Part shown: in pieces, positions 2 through 7,159 of the stretch
How the letters are laid out: the number at the start of each line of letters is the position of its first letter
How positions within the stretch are numbered: position 1 is the first letter of the stretch
Assembly (NCBI GenBank): GCA_963734155.1
Contig: CAVTGG010000014.1
Location: 309,841-373,840 of the forward strand
DNA length: 64,000 bases
Direction of reading: 5' to 3'
Source: an uncultured Acidobacteriota bacterium
GTDB lineage: Bacteria > Acidobacteriota > Thermoanaerobaculia > Gp7-AA8
Notes under the pieces: generated by a model
Told to the model about the DNA's origin: nothing
What the model saw: only the letters and a program-made list of their open reading frames with translations
The model's database searches: none
Made by a program: the position numbers and the translations under genes

Positions 2-1984
2 TTGTTTCAATACGACGAGTGGCGCGTGTCGAGCCGCTCGACGGAAATGCAGACGACGATCGGGCGCAAGCTGATTCGCCGCGACCGCACGCGCGAGCAG
101 AGCTACCGCAACCGCCTCGGCGCATCGCAGGCGATCGCCGTGTGGGACGGCTGGCGCGTGCGTCTTCCGCAACTCGAAGAGCTCGCGCGCACGCTCGGCT
201 CGGAAGGATGGACGATCGAGATCGACTCCGCGCCGCTGCGCGTCACGGACGACTTCGACGTCGAGATCACGAGCGGCATCGACTGGTTCGATCTCGATGC
301 GCACGCGAGCTTCGGCGACGCGCGCCTCGGTCTTCCGGAGTTGCTCGCGGCGTCGGAAGCGAAGCGCACGCTGCTGCGGTTGTCCGACGGCTCCTACGGC
401 ATCGTTCCTTCTTCCTGGACGGACACGCTCGCGCCGCTCGTCGACCTCGGCAAACGCGAAAACGATCGCATCCGCTTCCGACCGACGCAGGCGCTGCTGA
501 TCGACGCGCTGCTGCAATCGCGCTTGAAAAAGAGCGACAACGCCTTCGCCGATCTGCGCCAGCGGCTCGCCGCCGCGGCACCGGTCCCGCGCAACGAGCC
601 GCGGACGCTGCAAGCGACGTTGCGTCCCTATCAACGCGCCGGCCTGGGATGGCTGCACTTTCTCCGCTCGATCAACACCGGCGGTTGTCTCGCCGACGAC
701 ATGGGCCTCGGCAAGACCGTGCAGACGCTCGCGTTGCTCGAAGAGCTGCGCGCGGGCGGCACCACGCGGCCGTCGCTCGTCGTCGCCCCGCGCTCGCTGC
801 TGTTCAACTGGGCCGCGGAGGCGCAGCGATTCGCGCCGAAGCTGCGCGTGCTGCAGCATCACGGCACCGAGCGCGCGAAGAACGAATTCGCCGGCTACGA
901 CCTCGTGCTCACCACGTACGCAACGATGCGGCTCGACGTCGCGCGTCTCGCGGAGACGGAGTTCGAATACGTCATCCTCGACGAAGCGCAGGCGATCAAG
1001 AACACGACGAGTCAGGTCGCGAAGGCGAGCCGCCTCTTGAACGCAAAACATCGGCTCGCACTGAGCGGCACGCCGATCGAGAATCACCTCGGCGAGCTTT
1101 GGAGCCTGTTCGAGTTTCTCAATCCCGGTCTCCTCGGCTCGTCGCGCGCGTTCGGCCGCACGTTCGCATCGAAGACCACGCCGCCCGAGCGCCGCGAAGC
1201 GCTCGCGCGCGCGCTGCGTCCGCTGATCCTGCGCCGCACGAAGGAACAGGTCGCGCCCGAGCTGCCGGAGCGCATCGAGCAGACGATCTACTGCGAGCTG
1301 GATGGAAAACAGCGAAAGCAGTACGACGAGCTGCGCGAGCATTACCGGCAGTCGCTGCTCACGAAGGTTCAGAAGGGCGGCATCGAGAAAGCGCGCATGC
1401 AGATCCTCGAAGCGCTGCTGCGTTTGCGCCAGGCCGCCTGCCATCCCGCGCTCATCGATCCGCGCACGGACGCGGAAAGCGCGAAGATGGATCTGCTCAT
1501 GGACGAGCTGCGCGAAGTGCTCGACTCCGGCCACCGCGCGCTCGTCTTCTCGCAATTCACGTCGCTGCTCGCGCTCGTCCGCCGCGCGCTCGACGCCGAA
1601 GGCGCCGGCTATCTCTATCTCGACGGCAAAACGCGCGACCGCCAATCGCTCGTCAATGCGTTCCAGCACGACAACGGTCCGTCGCTCTTTCTCATCAGCC
1701 TCAAAGCCGGCGGCCTCGGATTGAATCTCACGAACGCCGACTACGTCTTCCTGCTCGACCCGTGGTGGAACCCGGCCGTCGAAGCGCAGGCCATCGACCG
1801 CGCCCACCGCATCGGCCGCCAGAAACCGGTCGTCGCCTACCGCCTCATCGCCCGCGACACCGTCGAAGAAAAAATCGTCGAGCTGCAAGCGCGAAAACGC
1901 GAGCTGGCCGAGTCGATTTTCTCGGAGGACAACAGCGTGCTGCGGAAGATCGAAGTGGAGGATCTGGAGCTGCTGCTGTCGTAG
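2..1984 (+). CDS. SNF2/RapA-like superfamily-2 helicase, 5'-truncated at window edge
   Basis: The ORF runs from the window edge. It has an SNF2_N-type ATPase core (LADDMGLGKT Walker A, DEAQAIKN DEAH-like box) followed by helicase-C motifs (LFLISLKAGGLGLNLT, QAIDRAHRIGQ). Confidence 0.85.
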   Translation: MFQYDEWRVSSRSTEMQTTIGRKLIRRDRTREQSYRNRLGASQAIAVWDGWRVRLPQLEELARTLGSEGWTIEIDSAPLRVTDDFDVEITSGIDWFDLDAHASFGDARLGLPELLAASEAKRTLLRLSDGSYGIVPSSWTDTLAPLVDLGKRENDRIRFRPTQALLIDALLQSRLKKSDNAFADLRQRLAAAAPVPRNEPRTLQATLRPYQRAGLGWLHFLRSINTGGCLADDMGLGKTVQTLALLEELRAGGTTRPSLVVAPRSLLFNWAAEAQRFAPKLRVLQHHGTERAKNEFAGYDLVLTTYATMRLDVARLAETEFEYVILDEAQAIKNTTSQVAKASRLLNAKHRLALSGTPIENHLGELWSLFEFLNPGLLGSSRAFGRTFASKTTPPERREALARALRPLILRRTKEQVAPELPERIEQTIYCELDGKQRKQYDELREHYRQSLLTKVQKGGIEKARMQILEALLRLRQAACHPALIDPRTDAESAKMDLLMDELREVLDSGHRALVFSQFTSLLALVRRALDAEGAGYLYLDGKTRDRQSLVNAFQHDNGPSLFLISLKAGGLGLNLTNADYVFLLDPWWNPAVEAQAIDRAHRIGRQKPVVAYRLIARDTVEEKIVELQARKRELAESIFSEDNSVLRKIEVEDLELLLS

Positions 1985-1987
1985 CGC

Positions 1988-2716
1988 TCACGGCGCGACG
2001 CCGACCGGCGAGTGATCGACTAGATAGCCGAAGATCTGCACGTTCTCCGCGCGCGCGTCGAGCTCGATCGTTTCGTAGCGCTCGTTCGTGCTCGTCAGGC
2101 GGATGGTGTGGCCGCTGATCTCGAATCGCTTGAGAAAGAGAGCATCGTCGCGGCGAAGCAGAACGGTGCGTCCGTTCGCGGTGCGAGGGCTGCGCGTCGG
2201 TTTGAGATACGTGAGCTCGCCATTGCGCAGCGGATCGATGCCGCCATCCATCGAATCGCCGACGACCTTGGCGATGATCCGCGCGCCGCGATTCCACGCC
2301 GTGCGCGGGATGAGCACGCGCTCCGTCTCCAGTTCCGCGATCAACTCCGCATTCGGATCAGCCGCAGCACGAACGGGCGACGCCGATCGATCGCGCGATG
2401 GCTTCACCAGCGAAACCACCGGCGCCATCGCCGCCGGCGGCAGCCAGTTGCTCAGAATCTCCTGCGCCCGCAACACCGCGGCGTGCGCGGTGCGCACCTG
2501 ATCGACTTCGACGACGATGTCGCCGTCGGTGAGGAGCAGCGCCGGATCGGCTCCGATGGCGCGCGCGATGGCGATGAACTCCAGCACCGTCGGAACCTGC
2601 TTCCGGTTCAGGATCTTGCTCAGCTTCGTCGCCGGCATTCCCGCGTCCGTGGCCACGCGAAGCCGTTTCAAACCGCTGGCCTGGACCGCGGCGATGAGCC
2701 GCTCGATGGCATCCAT
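1988..2716 (-). CDS. XRE-type HTH plus S24 peptidase (phage CI/LexA-like autoproteolytic repressor)
   Basis: The N-terminal HTH reads ATKLSKILNRKQVPTVLEFIAIARAIG. The C-terminal S24 domain carries the catalytic Ser in VVGDSM with Lys downstream (LFLKRF). It is divergent from the peptide operon. Confidence 0.8.
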   Translation of the reverse strand: MDAIERLIAAVQASGLKRLRVATDAGMPATKLSKILNRKQVPTVLEFIAIARAIGADPALLLTDGDIVVEVDQVRTAHAAVLRAQEILSNWLPPAAMAPVVSLVKPSRDRSASPVRAAADPNAELIAELETERVLIPRTAWNRGARIIAKVVGDSMDGGIDPLRNGELTYLKPTRSPRTANGRTVLLRRDDALFLKRFEISGHTIRLTSTNERYETIELDARAENVQIFGYLVDHSPVGVAP

Positions 2717-2789
2717 CTACCCGGGACGGTACGTCGGCGTTTCGAATGGGTGTTGCACGAGCAGTTTCGCGACACGCAACACAGCTGCA

Positions 2790-2865
2790 CCGAATTGCGA
2801 ATATCGCGAGAAGACTCCAGTAAGTTACTTATTAAGCAACAAATGTTACTTGTCAAGCAACTGCA
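2790..2865. promoter_or_regulatory. AT-rich divergent promoter/operator region with two 17-bp direct repeats GTTACTT(A/G)T(T/C)AAGCAAC
   Basis: This is the only AT-rich patch between the repressor gene and the peptide operon. Repeats lie at 2824-2840 and 2845-2861. On the minus strand, TTGACA, a 17-nt spacer and TAATAA resemble a promoter reading toward the repressor. Confidence 0.45.
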
Positions 2866-2987
2866 CCCGCCGCACTTCACCGCCGCCGACGAGCCGCAAG
2901 CGTCTGAATTGCCGTGGCGCTGCTGTTGCATCCGCCTAACGGGACTTCCCGCATTCCACACGTTGCGCGACGAAAGGATGACGACAC

Positions 2988-3197
2988 ATGGCCGAGAACG
3001 AAACTCCCGATCGCCTGATTCACGAGATCCGCGAGATCAACGAGGCGCAGGACCGCTACGCCGTCAGCATGTCCGACACCGGCAGCGGCGGCGGCGCCGG
3101 CGACTCGAACGACAACACCAGCAGCGGCGGCAGCAGCGACACCACCGATACCAGCGACGGCAACGATTCGAACGACTCCTCCGACTCGGGCAACTGA
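2988..3197 (+). CDS. small acidic Ser/Asp/Asn/Gly/Thr-rich peptide (69 aa), candidate precursor or substrate peptide
   Basis: An AAGGA SD lies 9 nt upstream of the ATG. The N-terminal 30 aa look helical and leader-like (MAENETPDRLIHEIREINEAQDRYAVSMSD). The C-terminal 39 aa are low-complexity (TGSGGGAGDSNDNTSSGGSSDTTDTSDGNDSNDSSDSGN). The stop lies 5 nt before the next ATG. Confidence 0.5.
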   Translation: MAENETPDRLIHEIREINEAQDRYAVSMSDTGSGGGAGDSNDNTSSGGSSDTTDTSDGNDSNDSSDSGN

Positions 3198-3202
3198 CGG
3201 CG

Positions 3203-4387
3203 ATGGCGCAGGAAGACATCCTGCAGTTGGTCGGCAGCGAGGATTTCCTTCGGGAAACCTGGGGCCGGACCATGCAGCATTTCCAGGGAACGCCCGGCGC
3301 GTTCCATCAGGTGCTGCCGTGGGATGCGCTCAATGAGATCCTGCGCGCGCACCGGCTGGAACCTCCGCGCCTGCGGCTCGTCCGCCACGCGCAGTACGCG
3401 GCGGCGGAGAGCTACATCCGCGTCCGGCCGAACCGCCGCGGGCAGGCCATTCCGGAGATCATTCCGGAGCGCTTCACGGCACTGCTGCGCGACGGCTACA
3501 CGCTGATCGTCGATGCCATCGACGAAATGGCGCCGGCGATCCGGGAGATCGCGGTGGCGCTCGAGCGGTTGTTTCACGAGACCGTGCAGGCCAACCTTTA
3601 CACAGCCTGGCGTGATCTGCAGGGCTTCGACGTCCACTGGGACGACCACGACGTTTTGATCCTGCAGGTCTACGGCCGCAAACACTGGCGCGTGTACCGG
3701 GGCGGGCGGGAACATCCGCTGCACCGCGACATCGCGCCGAACACCGAGCCGCCGAAAGAGCTCCATTGGGAAGGAGAGCTGCGCGACGGCGACGTGCTGT
3801 ATCTCCCGCGCGGCTGGTGGCACGAGGCGGCAGGGTGCGGCGAGCCGACGCTGCATCTCACCTTCGGCATTCCGAAACGGAACGGCATCAACCTGCTGCA
3901 ATGGCTCACGGACGAACTGCGCGCGGCGACGGAGTTTCGCGCCGATCTGCCGCGCTTCGCGGACGCGGCAGAGCGCGCGCGGCACATGCAGGCGCTGCGC
4001 GCGCAGCTGCTTGCGCGCTGGGATGACACACTGCTCGAGCGGTATCTCGCTTCGGAAGACCAGCGCGCGCGCCCGCGCACCTGGGTGAATCTCCCGCTTG
4101 CGGCGCAGGAGGAGGCCGTTCCTCCGCTCGATGCAGTCGTCTCGCTCGCGATCGCGCGGCCGCCCGAGATTGCGAAAGGCGATGCCATGATCACCATCCG
4201 CGCGCTCGGCCGCGAATGGGATCTGGCCGCCGGAACAGAGCCCGCGTTTCGCCGCCTGATCGACGGCCCGACGACGGTCGCGGAGCTCTCGCGCACGCTG
4301 GAAGGCACGGCGACGGTCGGCCAGACGCAGACGTTCGTGGCCGACCTCGTCCGGCGCGGGCTGCTGACCGTTCACCATGCCGGCTGA
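3203..4387 (+). CDS. cupin-4/JmjC-family Fe(II)/2-oxoglutarate oxygenase (RoxA/YcfD-like) with C-terminal winged-helix region
   Basis: An HxD motif sits in VHWDDHD. LRDGDVLYLPRGWWHEA provides the second His, matching the YcfD-type cupin core. The length (394 aa) and C-terminal helical domain resemble ribosomal-oxygenase family proteins. Confidence 0.75.
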   Translation: MAQEDILQLVGSEDFLRETWGRTMQHFQGTPGAFHQVLPWDALNEILRAHRLEPPRLRLVRHAQYAAAESYIRVRPNRRGQAIPEIIPERFTALLRDGYTLIVDAIDEMAPAIREIAVALERLFHETVQANLYTAWRDLQGFDVHWDDHDVLILQVYGRKHWRVYRGGREHPLHRDIAPNTEPPKELHWEGELRDGDVLYLPRGWWHEAAGCGEPTLHLTFGIPKRNGINLLQWLTDELRAATEFRADLPRFADAAERARHMQALRAQLLARWDDTLLERYLASEDQRARPRTWVNLPLAAQEEAVPPLDAVVSLAIARPPEIAKGDAMITIRALGREWDLAAGTEPAFRRLIDGPTTVAELSRTLEGTATVGQTQTFVADLVRRGLLTVHHAG

Positions 4388-5288
4388 CGTCGCGCGGCCG
4401 TCGCGCGCGCTCTGTTCCACGGCATCGCGCGCCGCGGAGGAAGACCTCATCGGCACCGCCGAGCCGGTACATCACTGGATCGCCATCGAGCTGCGCTCGG
4501 GCTGGGGCCGCAATCCCATCGATCACGCCAATCTGCCGCCGGCGGTACGCGCGCGACTCGTCGAGCTCGTCGCTCGCGTGCCGCGGACGCGCGTCGTGTT
4601 CATCCGGCGCGACGGAACCCCTCCACCCGGCGTACAGGTGTATGTCGCGCGCACGCGCGAGTCGGGATCGGTTCTGCGGGCAGCGCGCGTTTCTGCAATC
4701 GACGACGTGGTCTCGATTCCGTTCGAACGTTTCTTCGACGCGGATGAGCCAATCGGCGACGATGCGCAACCGATTGCGCTCGTTTGCACGCATGGTCAAC
4801 ACGACTCCTGCTGCGGGTTGCGCGGCTATCCGACGTTCGAGGCGCTGAGCCGCCGATACGAGCACGTCTGGCAGTGCTCGCATGTCGGCGGCGACCGCTT
4901 CGCAGCGAACGTCGTGGTCCTGCCGGCCGGGATTTACTACGCTCGCGTCGAACCCGGCGATGCCGAAGCGATCGACGCAGCGCTGCGGAACGGCCGCATC
5001 GTTCTTCGCCACTACCGCGGGCGCAGCTGCTACGACCGCGCGGCACAAGTGATCGAAACGGTCGTTCGCCGCGCCCACCGTCTGATGCACCTCGACGACG
5101 TGCGCGTGCTCGACGTTCAGTCAACACGGCCGCAGGTCTGGATCGGCAGCGCGAGCGATTCCTCGGGAACCGTGCATACGATCGAAGTCATCGAACGGCG
5201 GACCTCCGCAGTCGGATTTCTCACCTGTTCGGCGAAGAAGCAGGAGCCGTGGCGCGAGTATGAAGTGCTGCGCCACGAGAGGTCCTAG
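4377..5288 (+). CDS. sucrase/ferredoxin-like (Apd1-type thioredoxin-fold, putative [2Fe-2S]) protein
   Basis: Family motifs are VCTHGQHDSCCG and CSHVGGDRFAANVVVLP. The ATG overlaps the JmjC stop by 11 nt (ATGCCGGCTGA), which suggests translational coupling. Confidence 0.7.
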   Translation: MPADVARPSRALCSTASRAAEEDLIGTAEPVHHWIAIELRSGWGRNPIDHANLPPAVRARLVELVARVPRTRVVFIRRDGTPPPGVQVYVARTRESGSVLRAARVSAIDDVVSIPFERFFDADEPIGDDAQPIALVCTHGQHDSCCGLRGYPTFEALSRRYEHVWQCSHVGGDRFAANVVVLPAGIYYARVEPGDAEAIDAALRNGRIVLRHYRGRSCYDRAAQVIETVVRRAHRLMHLDDVRVLDVQSTRPQVWIGSASDSSGTVHTIEVIERRTSAVGFLTCSAKKQEPWREYEVLRHERS

Positions 5289-5300
5289 CGCACGAGCTTC

Positions 5301-5660
5301 TCAAACAAATGCGCCAGCGCCGCCGCCAGATCGGCGTTCACTCCCGAATGCACCGGCGAGGTTTGAATGATCGTGCTGCGCGGAGCGACGAGCCAGTGAA
5401 AGCGCTCGCTCTGCGACAAGCAGGCCGATCGGTCCGGCGTCGGGGCCGCCGGCACAGATGCGCGGGATCGAATCGAGATAGCTTTGCACGACATCGCGAT
5501 CGAGCGACGGGGCGAGTGCGCTGAGGCGCGCTGCGTCGAGTGCGATGCGGGCGTCGAGGAAACGCGCCGTGCGGCTGAAGAGAATCACGCCCGCGTTGAC
5601 GAACTCACCGCGCTCCACGCGGGGGACGATGCGCACGACGGCGTAGTCAAACGCGTGCAC
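5301..5660 (-). CDS. DUF3037 domain protein (partner of HipA-like kinase)
   Basis: The conserved DUF3037 N-terminus is FDYAVVRIVPRVERGEFVNAGVILF. The start is a probable GTG at 5660, 14 nt inside the kinase gene end. An upstream ATG at 5732 is an alternative. Confidence 0.55.
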   Translation of the reverse strand: MHAFDYAVVRIVPRVERGEFVNAGVILFSRTARFLDARIALDAARLSALAPSLDRDVVQSYLDSIPRICAGGPDAGPIGLLVAERALSLARRSAQHDHSNLAGAFGSERRSGGGAGAFV

Positions 5661-6405
5661 GAATCGCCTCCTCCAGCCATGCGCGCGGCGACGCGAGGCG
5701 TCGCACGAGATAGTCGGCGTATGGCATCGCATCCTCTTCGAGCCACGAATCCGGAATCAGTTGCACGACTCGCTCGATCGCGTCGCGCGTGAGCAGCGCG
5801 CTCAGCTCTTCATCGACTTCGCGCAGCATCGTCGCCCAACGCAACAGCACATGATCGCGGATCTGCGGAAACGCGCTCGTCGCGCGCGACGGATCGCCGT
5901 TCCAGGAGTGATGCACGATCAGCGTCGCGCCGTGGTCGATCAGCCAGAGATCGCGATGCCAGATGAGGAGATTCGTGTTCTTCGCCGTGCGGTCGACATT
6001 CGTCACCAGCGCGTCGAGCCAGACGATGGACGAGGCGAGCCGCGGCTGGCCGGCGATCGCGGCGGCGCGCTCGACGAGAGGATCGAACGTGATCGATCCC
6101 GGGAGATAGTCGAGGGCGAGATTCAGTCCGACGCTCTTCCGCAGCAGATCCTGGATCTCGGGATCGGGCTCCGTCTTCGCCATCCGCTCATCGACCATGG
6201 CGAAGACGATCTCCGGCACGCGCAGTCCGAGGAGCCGGGCCAACTCGCCCGAGACCAGCTCGGCGATCAGCGCCTTCACTCCCTGCCCCGCGCCGCGGAA
6301 CTTGAGGACGTACGTGCCGTCGTCATCGCCTTCGACGATGGCCGGCAGCGAGCCTCCTTCGCGAAGCGGCGTCACATATTCGGTGCAAGTGATGGTGCGA
6401 AGCAT
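5647..6405 (-). CDS. HipA-like Ser/Thr kinase (HipA_C catalytic core only)
   Basis: The catalytic-loop equivalent is LVTNVDRTAKNTN (HipA has NxDDHxKN). A DFG-like LIDHGATL and a Gly-rich N-terminus are present. The start was chosen at the internal ATG 6405, so the long ORF extension upstream is treated as non-coding. Confidence 0.6.
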   Translation of the reverse strand: MLRTITCTEYVTPLREGGSLPAIVEGDDDGTYVLKFRGAGQGVKALIAELVSGELARLLGLRVPEIVFAMVDERMAKTEPDPEIQDLLRKSVGLNLALDYLPGSITFDPLVERAAAIAGQPRLASSIVWLDALVTNVDRTAKNTNLLIWHRDLWLIDHGATLIVHHSWNGDPSRATSAFPQIRDHVLLRWATMLREVDEELSALLTRDAIERVVQLIPDSWLEEDAMPYADYLVRRLASPRAWLEEAIRARV

Positions 6406-6888
6406 GCGAGGAGGGGATTCTCTCGTAAAATGGCGACGATGCGAACGCGCGCGCTCCTCACCTTTCTCGTGCTTCTGATGGTCGCCCTCGGCGCATCTGC
6501 GCAAAGCGACAGTGAATTCGGCCGCGCTTCCAGCGGCGCGATCAGCGCGATCACGAAAGGACCGAGCCAGTTCTCCGGCACGCTCTCGCTGTCGCTGGGC
6601 AGTGGTACCGGCTACGGCGCTTCCTTCGGAGGCGAAGCGATCAAGGATCGGCTCTGGGTGTTCGCCGCGGCGGCTGTTTTGCCTCAGATCCGGTTCTCGG
6701 AAACGAAGCTCGAAGATGCGAAAGCGACAGCGCTGCCGGTCGATTGGGCGAACGTGACCGCGTCGTTCAGTCAGCTGCGTTCGAACGACGTGTTGTTGCC
6801 GATCGTCGTTCCTCTCGCTGCGCTCGACGACGATGCTCTCCGATCGCATGATGATGAACATCAGCTTTTCGCGATCGGGGCGGTAGTG

Positions 6889-6964
6889 TGGAGCCGATGA
6901 CCGGACTCGAACCGGTGACCTGCTGATTACGAATCAGCTGCTCTACCAACTGAGCTACATCGGC
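6889..6964 (-). tRNA. tRNA-Thr (anticodon CGT)
   Basis: A manual cloverleaf fits: acceptor GCCGATG/CATCGGC, D-arm GCTCAGTTGGTAGAGC, anticodon stem GCTGA/TCAGC with loop TTCGTAA, T-arm ACCGGTTCGAGTCCGGT, discriminator T plus an encoded CCA. Confidence 0.85.
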
Positions 6965-7082: not shown

Positions 7083-7159
7083 GCGCCCTTAGCTCAGCTG
7101 GATAGAGCATCAGACTTCGGATCTGAGGGTCGGGGGTTCGAATCCCTCAGGGCGCGCCA
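7083..7159 (+). tRNA. tRNA-Arg (anticodon TCG)
   Basis: The acceptor is GCGCCCT/AGGGCGC. The anticodon stem is TCAGA/TCTGA with loop CTTCGGA. The T-loop is TTCGAAT. An encoded CCA is present. Confidence 0.85.

Follow-up and report, generated by a model that had tools for sequence, protein, structure and literature searches.

A conserved three-gene module of acidic peptide, ROX-type JmjC oxygenase and Suc_Fer-like protein that looks like an undescribed RiPP-like peptide-modification system

The subject of this report is a three-gene operon within 64,000 nucleotides of DNA from an uncultured Acidobacteriota bacterium (contig CAVTGG010000014.1, forward-strand positions 309,841 to 373,840), a stretch referred to here in its full length as the window. 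The operon encodes a 69-aa acidic peptide, an Fe(II)/2-oxoglutarate (2OG) oxygenase of the JmjC type (the cupin) and a Suc_Fer-like thioredoxin-fold protein. Translational coupling joins the three genes into one functional unit, and the module recurs, conserved, in soil bacteria from three phyla. From its organization, the trio looks like an undescribed system of the kind that makes RiPPs, peptides synthesized by the ribosome and then modified post-translationally, in which the small gene would supply the precursor and the oxygenase would modify it. We put the probability that the acidic peptide is the substrate of the oxygenase at about 0.5, and any specific chemistry on the peptide is graded lower than that.

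Conservation of the module and coding nature of the small gene

The operon is compact. A gap of 5 nt separates the stop codon of the peptide gene (TGA, 3195-3197) from the start of the cupin gene (ATG at 3203), which in turn overlaps the Suc_Fer-like gene by 11 nt. A preliminary description of the window, made by reading its letters and open reading frames (ORFs), had laid out these three coupled ORFs, and the sequence bears out their coordinates, the gap, the overlap and the Shine-Dalgarno site (Table 1). The domains it named are also confirmed by Pfam, with JmjC_2 matching the cupin at 1.9e-25 and Suc_Fer-like (PF06999) matching the third protein at 5.5e-23 (82.5 bits against a gathering cut-off of 34.9). 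An NCBIfam search returned no family for any of the three operon proteins.

Spurious ORFs are plentiful in this region of 65% GC, and the 69-aa ORF might be one of them, a low-complexity frame in front of an ordinary two-gene operon of cupin and Suc_Fer-like protein. Such a reading would fit with the scarce annotation of the related small ORFs, which form 8 clusters, every one named “hypothetical protein” or unnamed, and with the outcome of Pfam and NCBIfam searches, which found no family for the window, acidobacterial, actinomycete and Phenylobacterium peptides. Comparison with the closest relative of the cupin speaks against it. This relative (P0002, 79% identity) is encoded on an unrelated contig (locus L085), where a 69-aa ORF with frame, length and stop preserved occupies the corresponding position. 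The two ORFs align without indels at 81% nucleotide identity, and their codons differ by 19 synonymous and 15 non-synonymous changes, with 24 of the 40 nucleotide differences in third positions. GC content at third codon positions (GC3) is 0.90 in the window ORF, and the substitution pattern between the two ORFs matches that of the cupin gene. A Shine-Dalgarno site is also retained, as AAGGAG at similar spacing in L085, although the remaining upstream DNA is not conserved. Finally, homologous ORFs that share an N-terminal motif are found at 102 loci in three phyla. Given the coding-type pattern against L085 and the conserved homologues, we reject the spurious-frame reading as extremely improbable; the 69-aa ORF is coding, and cupins of this subfamily have in it a genuine and conserved partner.

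Homologues of the cupin number more than 970, mostly from Thermoanaerobaculia/Acidobacteriota metagenomes. A scan of species-representative genomes gave 80 loci and a scan of metagenomes gave 80 further loci. The species-representative loci are mainly from Pseudonocardiaceae (Amycolatopsis, Saccharothrix, Kutzneria, Kibdelosporangium, Actinosynnema, Actinocrispum and Actinophytocola), with some from Acidobacteriota and one from a Phenylobacterium metagenome-assembled genome. On four unrelated contigs the flanks differ, yet the small ORF, the cupin and the Suc_Fer-like gene recur. We counted co-occurrence at the 122 related loci that have enough sequence on both sides, scoring the peptide as an upstream D-rich small ORF with D.DG or DG.D. 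At 102 of the 122 loci a Suc_Fer-like gene lies downstream and a D-rich small ORF upstream, in the order peptide-cupin-Suc_Fer-like, while 16 loci have neither partner. Three loci (L083, L085 and L110) have the Suc_Fer-like gene but no exact peptide motif, and on inspection these carry variant D-rich ORFs; at one locus there is no Suc_Fer-like gene and the motif is a chance match. The association of the two partners gives a Fisher p of 4e-16, a value that is not corrected for phylogeny and so counts sequences, not events. The Suc_Fer-like gene lies directly downstream of the cupin at 83 of 85 loci, and at 105 of 122 in the enlarged set. The preliminary description had made its proposal depend on small D-rich ORFs beside cupin-4 genes elsewhere, and this is the arrangement that the counts reveal.

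Some cupin homologues lack both partners. A split of peptide-linked from unlinked cupins by an identity threshold was tried and rejected; their identity ranges overlap (34-79% versus 33-43%), and the cupins were therefore classified by gene context. All-versus-all clustering of ORFs in two locus sets found no fourth conserved gene (protease, transporter or regulator) beyond synteny at the level of a genus or clade.

Several neighbours show such local synteny. In Amycolatopsis (L006 and some 20-30 other loci), the module lies near genes for an S9/DPP-IV-type peptidase, a luciferase-like monooxygenase and a MarR regulator; a 641-aa radical SAM protein is encoded directly downstream of the Suc_Fer-like gene at 22 loci, with an aspartyl-tRNA synthetase further on. 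None of these neighbours is conserved outside the genus. A gene for a hybrid histidine kinase/response regulator lies upstream on the same strand at L109 (373-2448) and 10 similar loci, which are the acidobacterial subgroup having long D/S/G/T-rich peptides. One record titled Rhodococcus rhodnii NRRL B-16535 (L023) has a peptide identical to that of Kibdelosporangium/Actinosynnema loci (the L014 group), and its taxonomic label may be wrong.

Peptide, oxygenase and candidate iron-sulfur protein

Comparison of 46 distinct peptides shows a common N-terminal motif, S-G-L-[LI]-x-[DE]-V-[ER]-[ED]-[LI], which in the window takes the form DRLIHEIREI. The acidic tails behind it vary greatly, usually with 1 to more than 10 DxDG[T/N]D units. 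Acidobacterial peptides are 69-100 aa long and carry tandem DGTDGGDSDGTD units, usually ending in ...DSDGTDNA, and longer D/S/G/T-rich proteins end in ...DADGTDAK. Actinomycete peptides are 30-44 aa long with one unit (DNDGND), as in ...AVDRGKANGAVADNDGND; a 43-aa peptide, ...AVDRGKANGAAADNDGNDG, is encoded at Amycolatopsis orientalis DSM 40040 (L009) and A. azurea loci. The core units of the family are DSDG, DADG, DTDG and DNDG, and a D-x-D-G unit occurs in 57 of the 64 peptides scored. The clade of the window peptide and its L085 counterpart has a degenerate S/T/N/D/G tail with DTSDGND, DTSDG standing in place of the unit; the last 41 residues of the window peptide comprise nine D, twelve S, nine G, five N, five T and one A. 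At three loci (L119, L120 and L127), the same SGLLLG leader is followed by W/D/G-rich cores, GWDGDGWDGWDGDW, for example ...GWDADWWDGDGWDGWDGDW; these loci are metagenomic, with flanks too short to confirm a Suc_Fer-like gene. Their presence suggests that enzymes of this family can work with cores of very different kinds. What marks a leader/core precursor is a head that stays conserved while the tail is hypervariable and expands by repeats, and the small gene thus probably encodes a precursor-like peptide with an N-terminal recognition motif.

The cupin aligns by profile with the human ribosomal oxygenase NO66, which sets His145 and Asp147 (in VHWDDHD) and His207 (in GWWHEA) in register with the NO66 Fe ligands and Lys160 with the 2OG lysine of NO66 (GRKLWRVY). 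This lysine of NO66 binds the C5 carboxylate of 2OG. The Fe triad and Lys160 are invariant in 43 homologues, so the cupin should be a working 2OG oxygenase, as predicted from these residues. Among solved structures the best scores belong to NO66 (22.7), E. coli YcfD (20.3), Rhodothermus YcfD (19.4), MINA53 (19.3) and YxbC (17.1), and the full ROX architecture is present: a JmjC barrel, a helical (dimerization) domain and a C-terminal winged helix. Orthology to RoxA/YcfD, which the preliminary description had named as one point on which its proposal might fall, was considered and rejected; identity to YcfD is ~20% with an hmmsearch E of 5.6e-7, and no match came from NCBIfam, whose models include equivalogs. 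Many database entries of the cupin clade bear the automatic name “ribosomal protein L16 Arg81 hydroxylase”. In view of the low identity to YcfD and the conserved peptide and Suc_Fer-like context, this name is probably a mis-annotation.

A closer look at the winged helix shows fold matches to RiPP recognition elements (RREs), the strongest being TigE (8.5), ThcOx (8.4), PqqD (8.1), MibB (8.0), TbiB1 (7.9) and LynD (7.7), followed by NisB (7.5), PbtF (7.1), TfuB1 (6.9), McbB (6.9) and TglI (6.3). NO66 (8.4) is interleaved among these matches. The ROX winged helix is therefore itself RRE-like at the level of the fold, and in the module it is ancestral to the ROX family, not a newly acquired or fused RRE. 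Proteins of PF08007 have been reported to carry RRE-like folds, with bacterial homologues in RiPP-like contexts, and fusions of JmjC (PF08007) with RRE-like domains have been noted (PMC12710340). Paralogous cupins found without the peptide and Suc_Fer-like genes are 43% identical to the module cupin in the catalytic domain and keep all four site residues, while the helical and winged-helix domains are only 24-25% identical, a divergence that fits a partner-specific role for those domains.

The loci of these partner-less paralogues (L132-L166) have features of their own. A conserved DNA element of ~80 nt lies 50-90 nt upstream of the cupin ATG, with the consensus CGCCGGAAGCATGATAATTTGC..AGCGTATCGCCGGTTGGGGGCTTCGCCAAGCGACTGTGCC (for example at 2830-3010 of both L159 and L147). 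The element has no Rfam match and could be a promoter plus a 5′-untranslated region element. A TonB-dependent-receptor-like gene is often nearby.

The third protein contains the conserved motifs CTHGQHDSCCG and CSHVGGDRFAANV. Among 81 cupin-linked Suc_Fer-like sequences, Cys13, Cys137, His139, Cys145, Cys146, His169 and Cys284 are invariant and Asp173 is conserved in at least 95%. A CX8C...HX3H motif has been described for the fungal proteins Aim32 and Apd1 (PMC8482512). In the module protein, Cys137 and Cys146 form an invariant CX8C pair and an SH-x-GG motif is present, but the bis-histidine pair is replaced by His169-Val-Gly-Gly-Asp173. The “Apd1-type” assignment of the preliminary description thus stands for the Pfam family and for CX8C, and does not extend to HX3H, which is here HX3D. 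A profile of the Suc_Fer-like family gave a weak match of 30 residues to Aquifex Fd4 (PDB 1f37, E 0.0015), in which His169 and Asp173 fall in register with Cys55 and Cys59, which we take to be ligands of the Fd4 cluster. The CX8C pair and this register lead us to infer a candidate thioredoxin-like [2Fe-2S] site with Cys2-His-Asp-type ligation. A phmmer search of the protein against PDB sequences gave no match, and the C-terminal extension (~90 aa) has no Pfam match at E<=1. Relatives of the protein are numerous, with 3547 at E<=1e-3 and 412 at E<=1e-30 among representatives of 50%-identity clusters. No functional description of a bacterial Suc_Fer-like/PF06999 protein was found in the literature searched, where the work is fungal.

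Proposed pathway, rival explanations and regulation

The organization of the module would be accounted for by a simple pathway. The winged helix would dock the SGLLxxVExL-type N-terminal motif of the peptide, and the JmjC domain would then oxidize residues of the acidic tail. Side-chain C-3 is the position hydroxylated both by the ROX enzymes and by FIH, a JmjC enzyme, and the feature invariant among the cores is Asp; the likeliest reaction would therefore be Asp (or Asn) hydroxylation at C-beta, within DxDG-type units or beside them. The candidate iron-sulfur protein would belong to the same pathway, either keeping the iron of the oxygenase reduced or re-reducing it, or catalyzing a second step on the oxidized peptide. 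Conservation extends to no peptidase or exporter, and the product may therefore remain inside the cell and act there, or it may rely on unlinked factors. The preliminary description had proposed a RiPP-like substrate/enzyme system, and the leader/core organization and the RRE-like domain fit that prediction; hydroxylation itself, the part of redox partner that it gave to the third protein and a metallophore as product would be possible further elements. In its most complete form the proposal would define a RiPP-like class in which a ROX-type JmjC enzyme with a leader-docking winged helix beta-hydroxylates Asp/Asn of DxDG repeats, with an unusual Cys2-His-Asp [2Fe-2S] protein as obligatory partner and a metal-binding poly(hydroxy-aspartate) as product. 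We regard this full version as less likely than not.

Several observations weigh against the peptide being the substrate. The peptide of the window is itself without an exact DxDG unit, and the isolated winged helix has no PqqD (PF05402) or RRE sequence match in Pfam even at E<=1. The peptide-linked cupins are acidic too, with a median net charge of -11, and offer no electrostatic complementarity to polyanionic peptides. No leader peptidase or transporter/exporter is conserved at the related loci. In addition, 2OG oxygenases, to our knowledge, normally need no ferredoxin, which leaves the role of the third gene unexplained. The acidity of the enzyme and the lack of a conserved protease or exporter would suit a different arrangement, where the acidic protein is an accessory (a Ca2+ or Fe2+ buffer, a metallochaperone, a docking or inhibitory partner, or a regulator) and the oxygenase hydroxylates another protein, for example a ribosomal one. 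The solved structures nearest to it all belong to hydroxylases of ribosomal proteins and have these three domains as well, and DxDG-type acidic repeats could bind metal unmodified, as DXDG binds Ca2+ in lipopeptide antibiotics (PMC12954748). A conserved N-terminal motif with a hypervariable tail is, however, the pattern of a recognized substrate and not of a structured partner, and the repeat number, ranging from 1 to more than 10, and the W-rich cores behind the same leader run against such a partner as well. The peptide-less paralogues differ mainly in the winged-helix and helical domains, identity to YcfD is only ~20%, and the NCBIfam search, equivalog models included, gave no family. We regard the accessory role as unlikely; the gene context points to the adjacent peptide as substrate, rather than a ribosomal protein.

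The preliminary description had also called the operon repressor-controlled, with induction of an SOS- or prophage-like kind. The divergent protein does have the domains of such a repressor, a helix-turn-helix (HTH_31, 2.4e-6) and Peptidase_S24 (1.5e-12), and its translation contains GDSM and LKRF, which we read as a possible Ser/Lys dyad. In the shared intergenic region, the paired 17-bp repeats that it had noticed are found at 2824-2840 and 2845-2861, identical at 15 of 17 positions and 21 nt apart from start to start; the pattern has only these two matches in the 64 kb, with 0.13 expected by chance. By reading, each repeat is an imperfect palindrome, as expected for the operator of a dimeric HTH protein. 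An XRE-S24 repressor that binds these 17-bp operators and is inactivated by RecA-stimulated self-cleavage could thus make the module an inducible operon. Set against this, a homologue of the repressor is absent from all 166 related loci, among them L085, the closest relative with its 79% identical cupin, which has other genes upstream. Control by a repressor is therefore no general feature of the system; the divergent HTH-S24 gene and the repeats are real but specific to this genome. Measured from the repressor start codon the operators are 108-145 nt away, and from the peptide ATG 127-164 nt; by reading they overlap a TTGACA on the minus (repressor) strand, so they may serve only for autoregulation of the repressor. 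No Ala-Gly was seen in the linker, and the score for the LexA equivalog TIGR00498 is 25.9 bits against a cut-off of 110.95. A scan of the operon region found no consensus promoter, and the base composition is not foreign. The repressor may still regulate the operon in this genome, though we regard the reading of the module as an SOS- or prophage-like inducible operon as rather unlikely.

The features of the locus and of its surroundings are collected in Table 1. Upstream of the peptide gene no riboswitch or other RNA element was found at E<=1, and terminator-like sites across 1900-5500 are not above chance in number. The DUF3037 and HipA_2 genes face the operon convergently, and their listed coordinates overlap; their Pfam matches begin well within the ORFs, and the true starts are probably further downstream. 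The two tRNA genes lie ~1.6 kb downstream of the module. Neither GC content nor skew gives a signal of a foreign island, and the stretch from the SNF2-type helicase gene to the tRNA genes shows no GC anomaly, which leaves no island in evidence.

Table 1. Position and basis of the features at the module locus (window coordinates)
Feature	Position	Strand	Basis or remark
SNF2-type helicase gene	2..1984		
Divergent XRE-HTH + S24 peptidase repressor, 242 aa	1988..2716	-	Pfam HTH_31, Peptidase_S24
Two tandem 17-bp operator-like imperfect palindromes, GTTACTTATTAAGCAAC and GTTACTTGTCAAGCAAC	2824..2861		Repeat search
Shine-Dalgarno-like AAAGGA	2973-2978	+	9 nt before peptide ATG
Precursor-like peptide gene, 69 aa plus stop	2988..3197	+	ORF, coding pattern vs L085, homologues at other loci
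Leader motif DRLIHEIREI, residues 8-17	3009..3038	+	Leader comparison, 46 distinct peptides
Core-like acidic tail, residues 29-69	3072..3194	+	Sequence; family cores
JmjC Fe(II)/2OG oxygenase (cupin), 394 aa	3203..4387	+	Pfam JmjC_2
Oxygenase, JmjC domain	~3203-3886	+	
Oxygenase, helical domain	~3887-4102	+	
Oxygenase, winged helix	4103-4384	+	
HxD Fe ligands His145 (3635-3637), Asp147 (3641-3643)	3635..3643	+	Invariant; NO66 alignment
Lys160, predicted 2OG C5-carboxylate binder	3680..3682	+	Invariant; aligned with Lys of NO66 GRKLWRV
His207, third Fe ligand	3821..3823	+	Invariant; aligned with His of NO66 PRGFIHQA
Suc_Fer-like protein (thioredoxin-like ferredoxin), 303 aa	4377..5288	+	PF06999; C-terminal extension ~90 aa
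Predicted cluster-ligand segment: Cys137 (4785-4787), Cys145/146, His169 (4881-4883), Asp173 (4893-4895)	4785..4895	+	
DUF3037 gene	5301..5732	-	Pfam
HipA_2 (HipA-like kinase) gene	5647..6861	-	Pfam
tRNA-Thr(CGT)	6889..6964	-	
tRNA-Arg(TCG)	7083..7159	+	

Significance and comparison with known systems

JmjC hydroxylases that act on RiPP precursors and RRE-guided modification are already known, but we could not find the minimal trio described. No description of a module of ROX-type JmjC, Suc_Fer-like protein and DxDG peptides was found in the literature covered, which did not extend to Xia et al., 2025 (JACS, on alpha-ketoglutarate dioxygenase macrocyclization in RiPPs), and the string “DNDGND” was not found either. 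The preliminary description was aware of no described family of this architecture, and we likewise found neither a named family nor a paper on the module. What makes the module of interest is that it is widespread, minimal and present in culturable actinomycetes; some members belong to genetically tractable, antibiotic-producing species, so the chemistry is directly testable. If the proposal is right, the small ORFs, mostly unannotated, would gain their first functional context and would make up a large family of modified ribosomal peptides that has so far had no name. The module would link the ROX branch of the JmjC enzymes, RiPP-style leader recognition and the bacterial Apd1-like iron-sulfur proteins. 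In its full version the proposal would also suggest that the ROX winged helix and the RREs share a peptide-docking function, and the product would then stand beside the Ca2+-binding DXDG lipopeptides or the hydroxy-Asp siderophores as their counterpart of ribosomal origin.

The ROX enzymes (human NO66 and MINA53, E. coli YcfD/RoxA) are the structural relatives of the oxygenase, yet the module cupin is only ~20-22% identical to them and has no NCBIfam family. Their substrates are ribosomal (uL16 Arg81, a His of uL2 and a His of uL15), whereas the module has no ribosomal substrate context. ROX genes are not known to be flanked by genes for a small acidic peptide and a Suc_Fer-like protein, while the module cupin clade invariably has both.

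Closer in genetic setting are two JmjC enzymes of RiPP pathways, CzlI, a Phe hydroxylase of the curacozole pathway (PMC11575548), and BipG, an ornithine hydroxylase of the biphenomycin pathway (PMC12707348). Like the module oxygenase, these are JmjC Fe/2OG enzymes with a precursor peptide encoded in the same cluster. They sit, however, in large multi-enzyme clusters with azole-forming, MNIO or radical SAM enzymes, proteases and transporters, while in the module the JmjC protein is the only recognizable modifying enzyme, its partner is a putative iron-sulfur protein and repeats rich in Asp make up the cores. YxbC (1vrb), to which CzlI is closest, ranks only fifth among the structural matches of the module oxygenase. 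In comparison with RiPP systems that use a PqqD-like RRE, the module winged helix shares the fold but not the PqqD sequence, and leader docking by it is predicted from that fold.

The Suc_Fer-like protein belongs to the same Pfam family as Apd1 and Aim32 and shares CX8C and SH-x-GG with them, the second His being Asp in the module. Beyond these fungal proteins it has the invariant Cys13 and Cys284 and the C-terminal extension, and it is bacterial and operon-linked to an oxygenase.

Beta-hydroxylation of Asp is known in RiPPs from CinX (cinnamycin), from alpha-ketoglutarate HExxH enzymes and from MNIO domains (PMC11575548, PMC12636437). The folds of these enzymes differ from the JmjC fold of the module, for which Asp beta-hydroxylation is a prediction. 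Some Ca2+-dependent lipopeptides carry beta-hydroxylated Asn or Asp made by Fe/2OG enzymes. The DXDG motif binds Ca2+ in the non-ribosomal lipopeptides daptomycin, CDA and laspartomycin (PMC12954748), and the DxDG units of the family cores resemble these in motif only. Unlike the lipopeptides, the module peptides are ribosomal and, as encoded, linear, with no lipid or macrocycle machinery.

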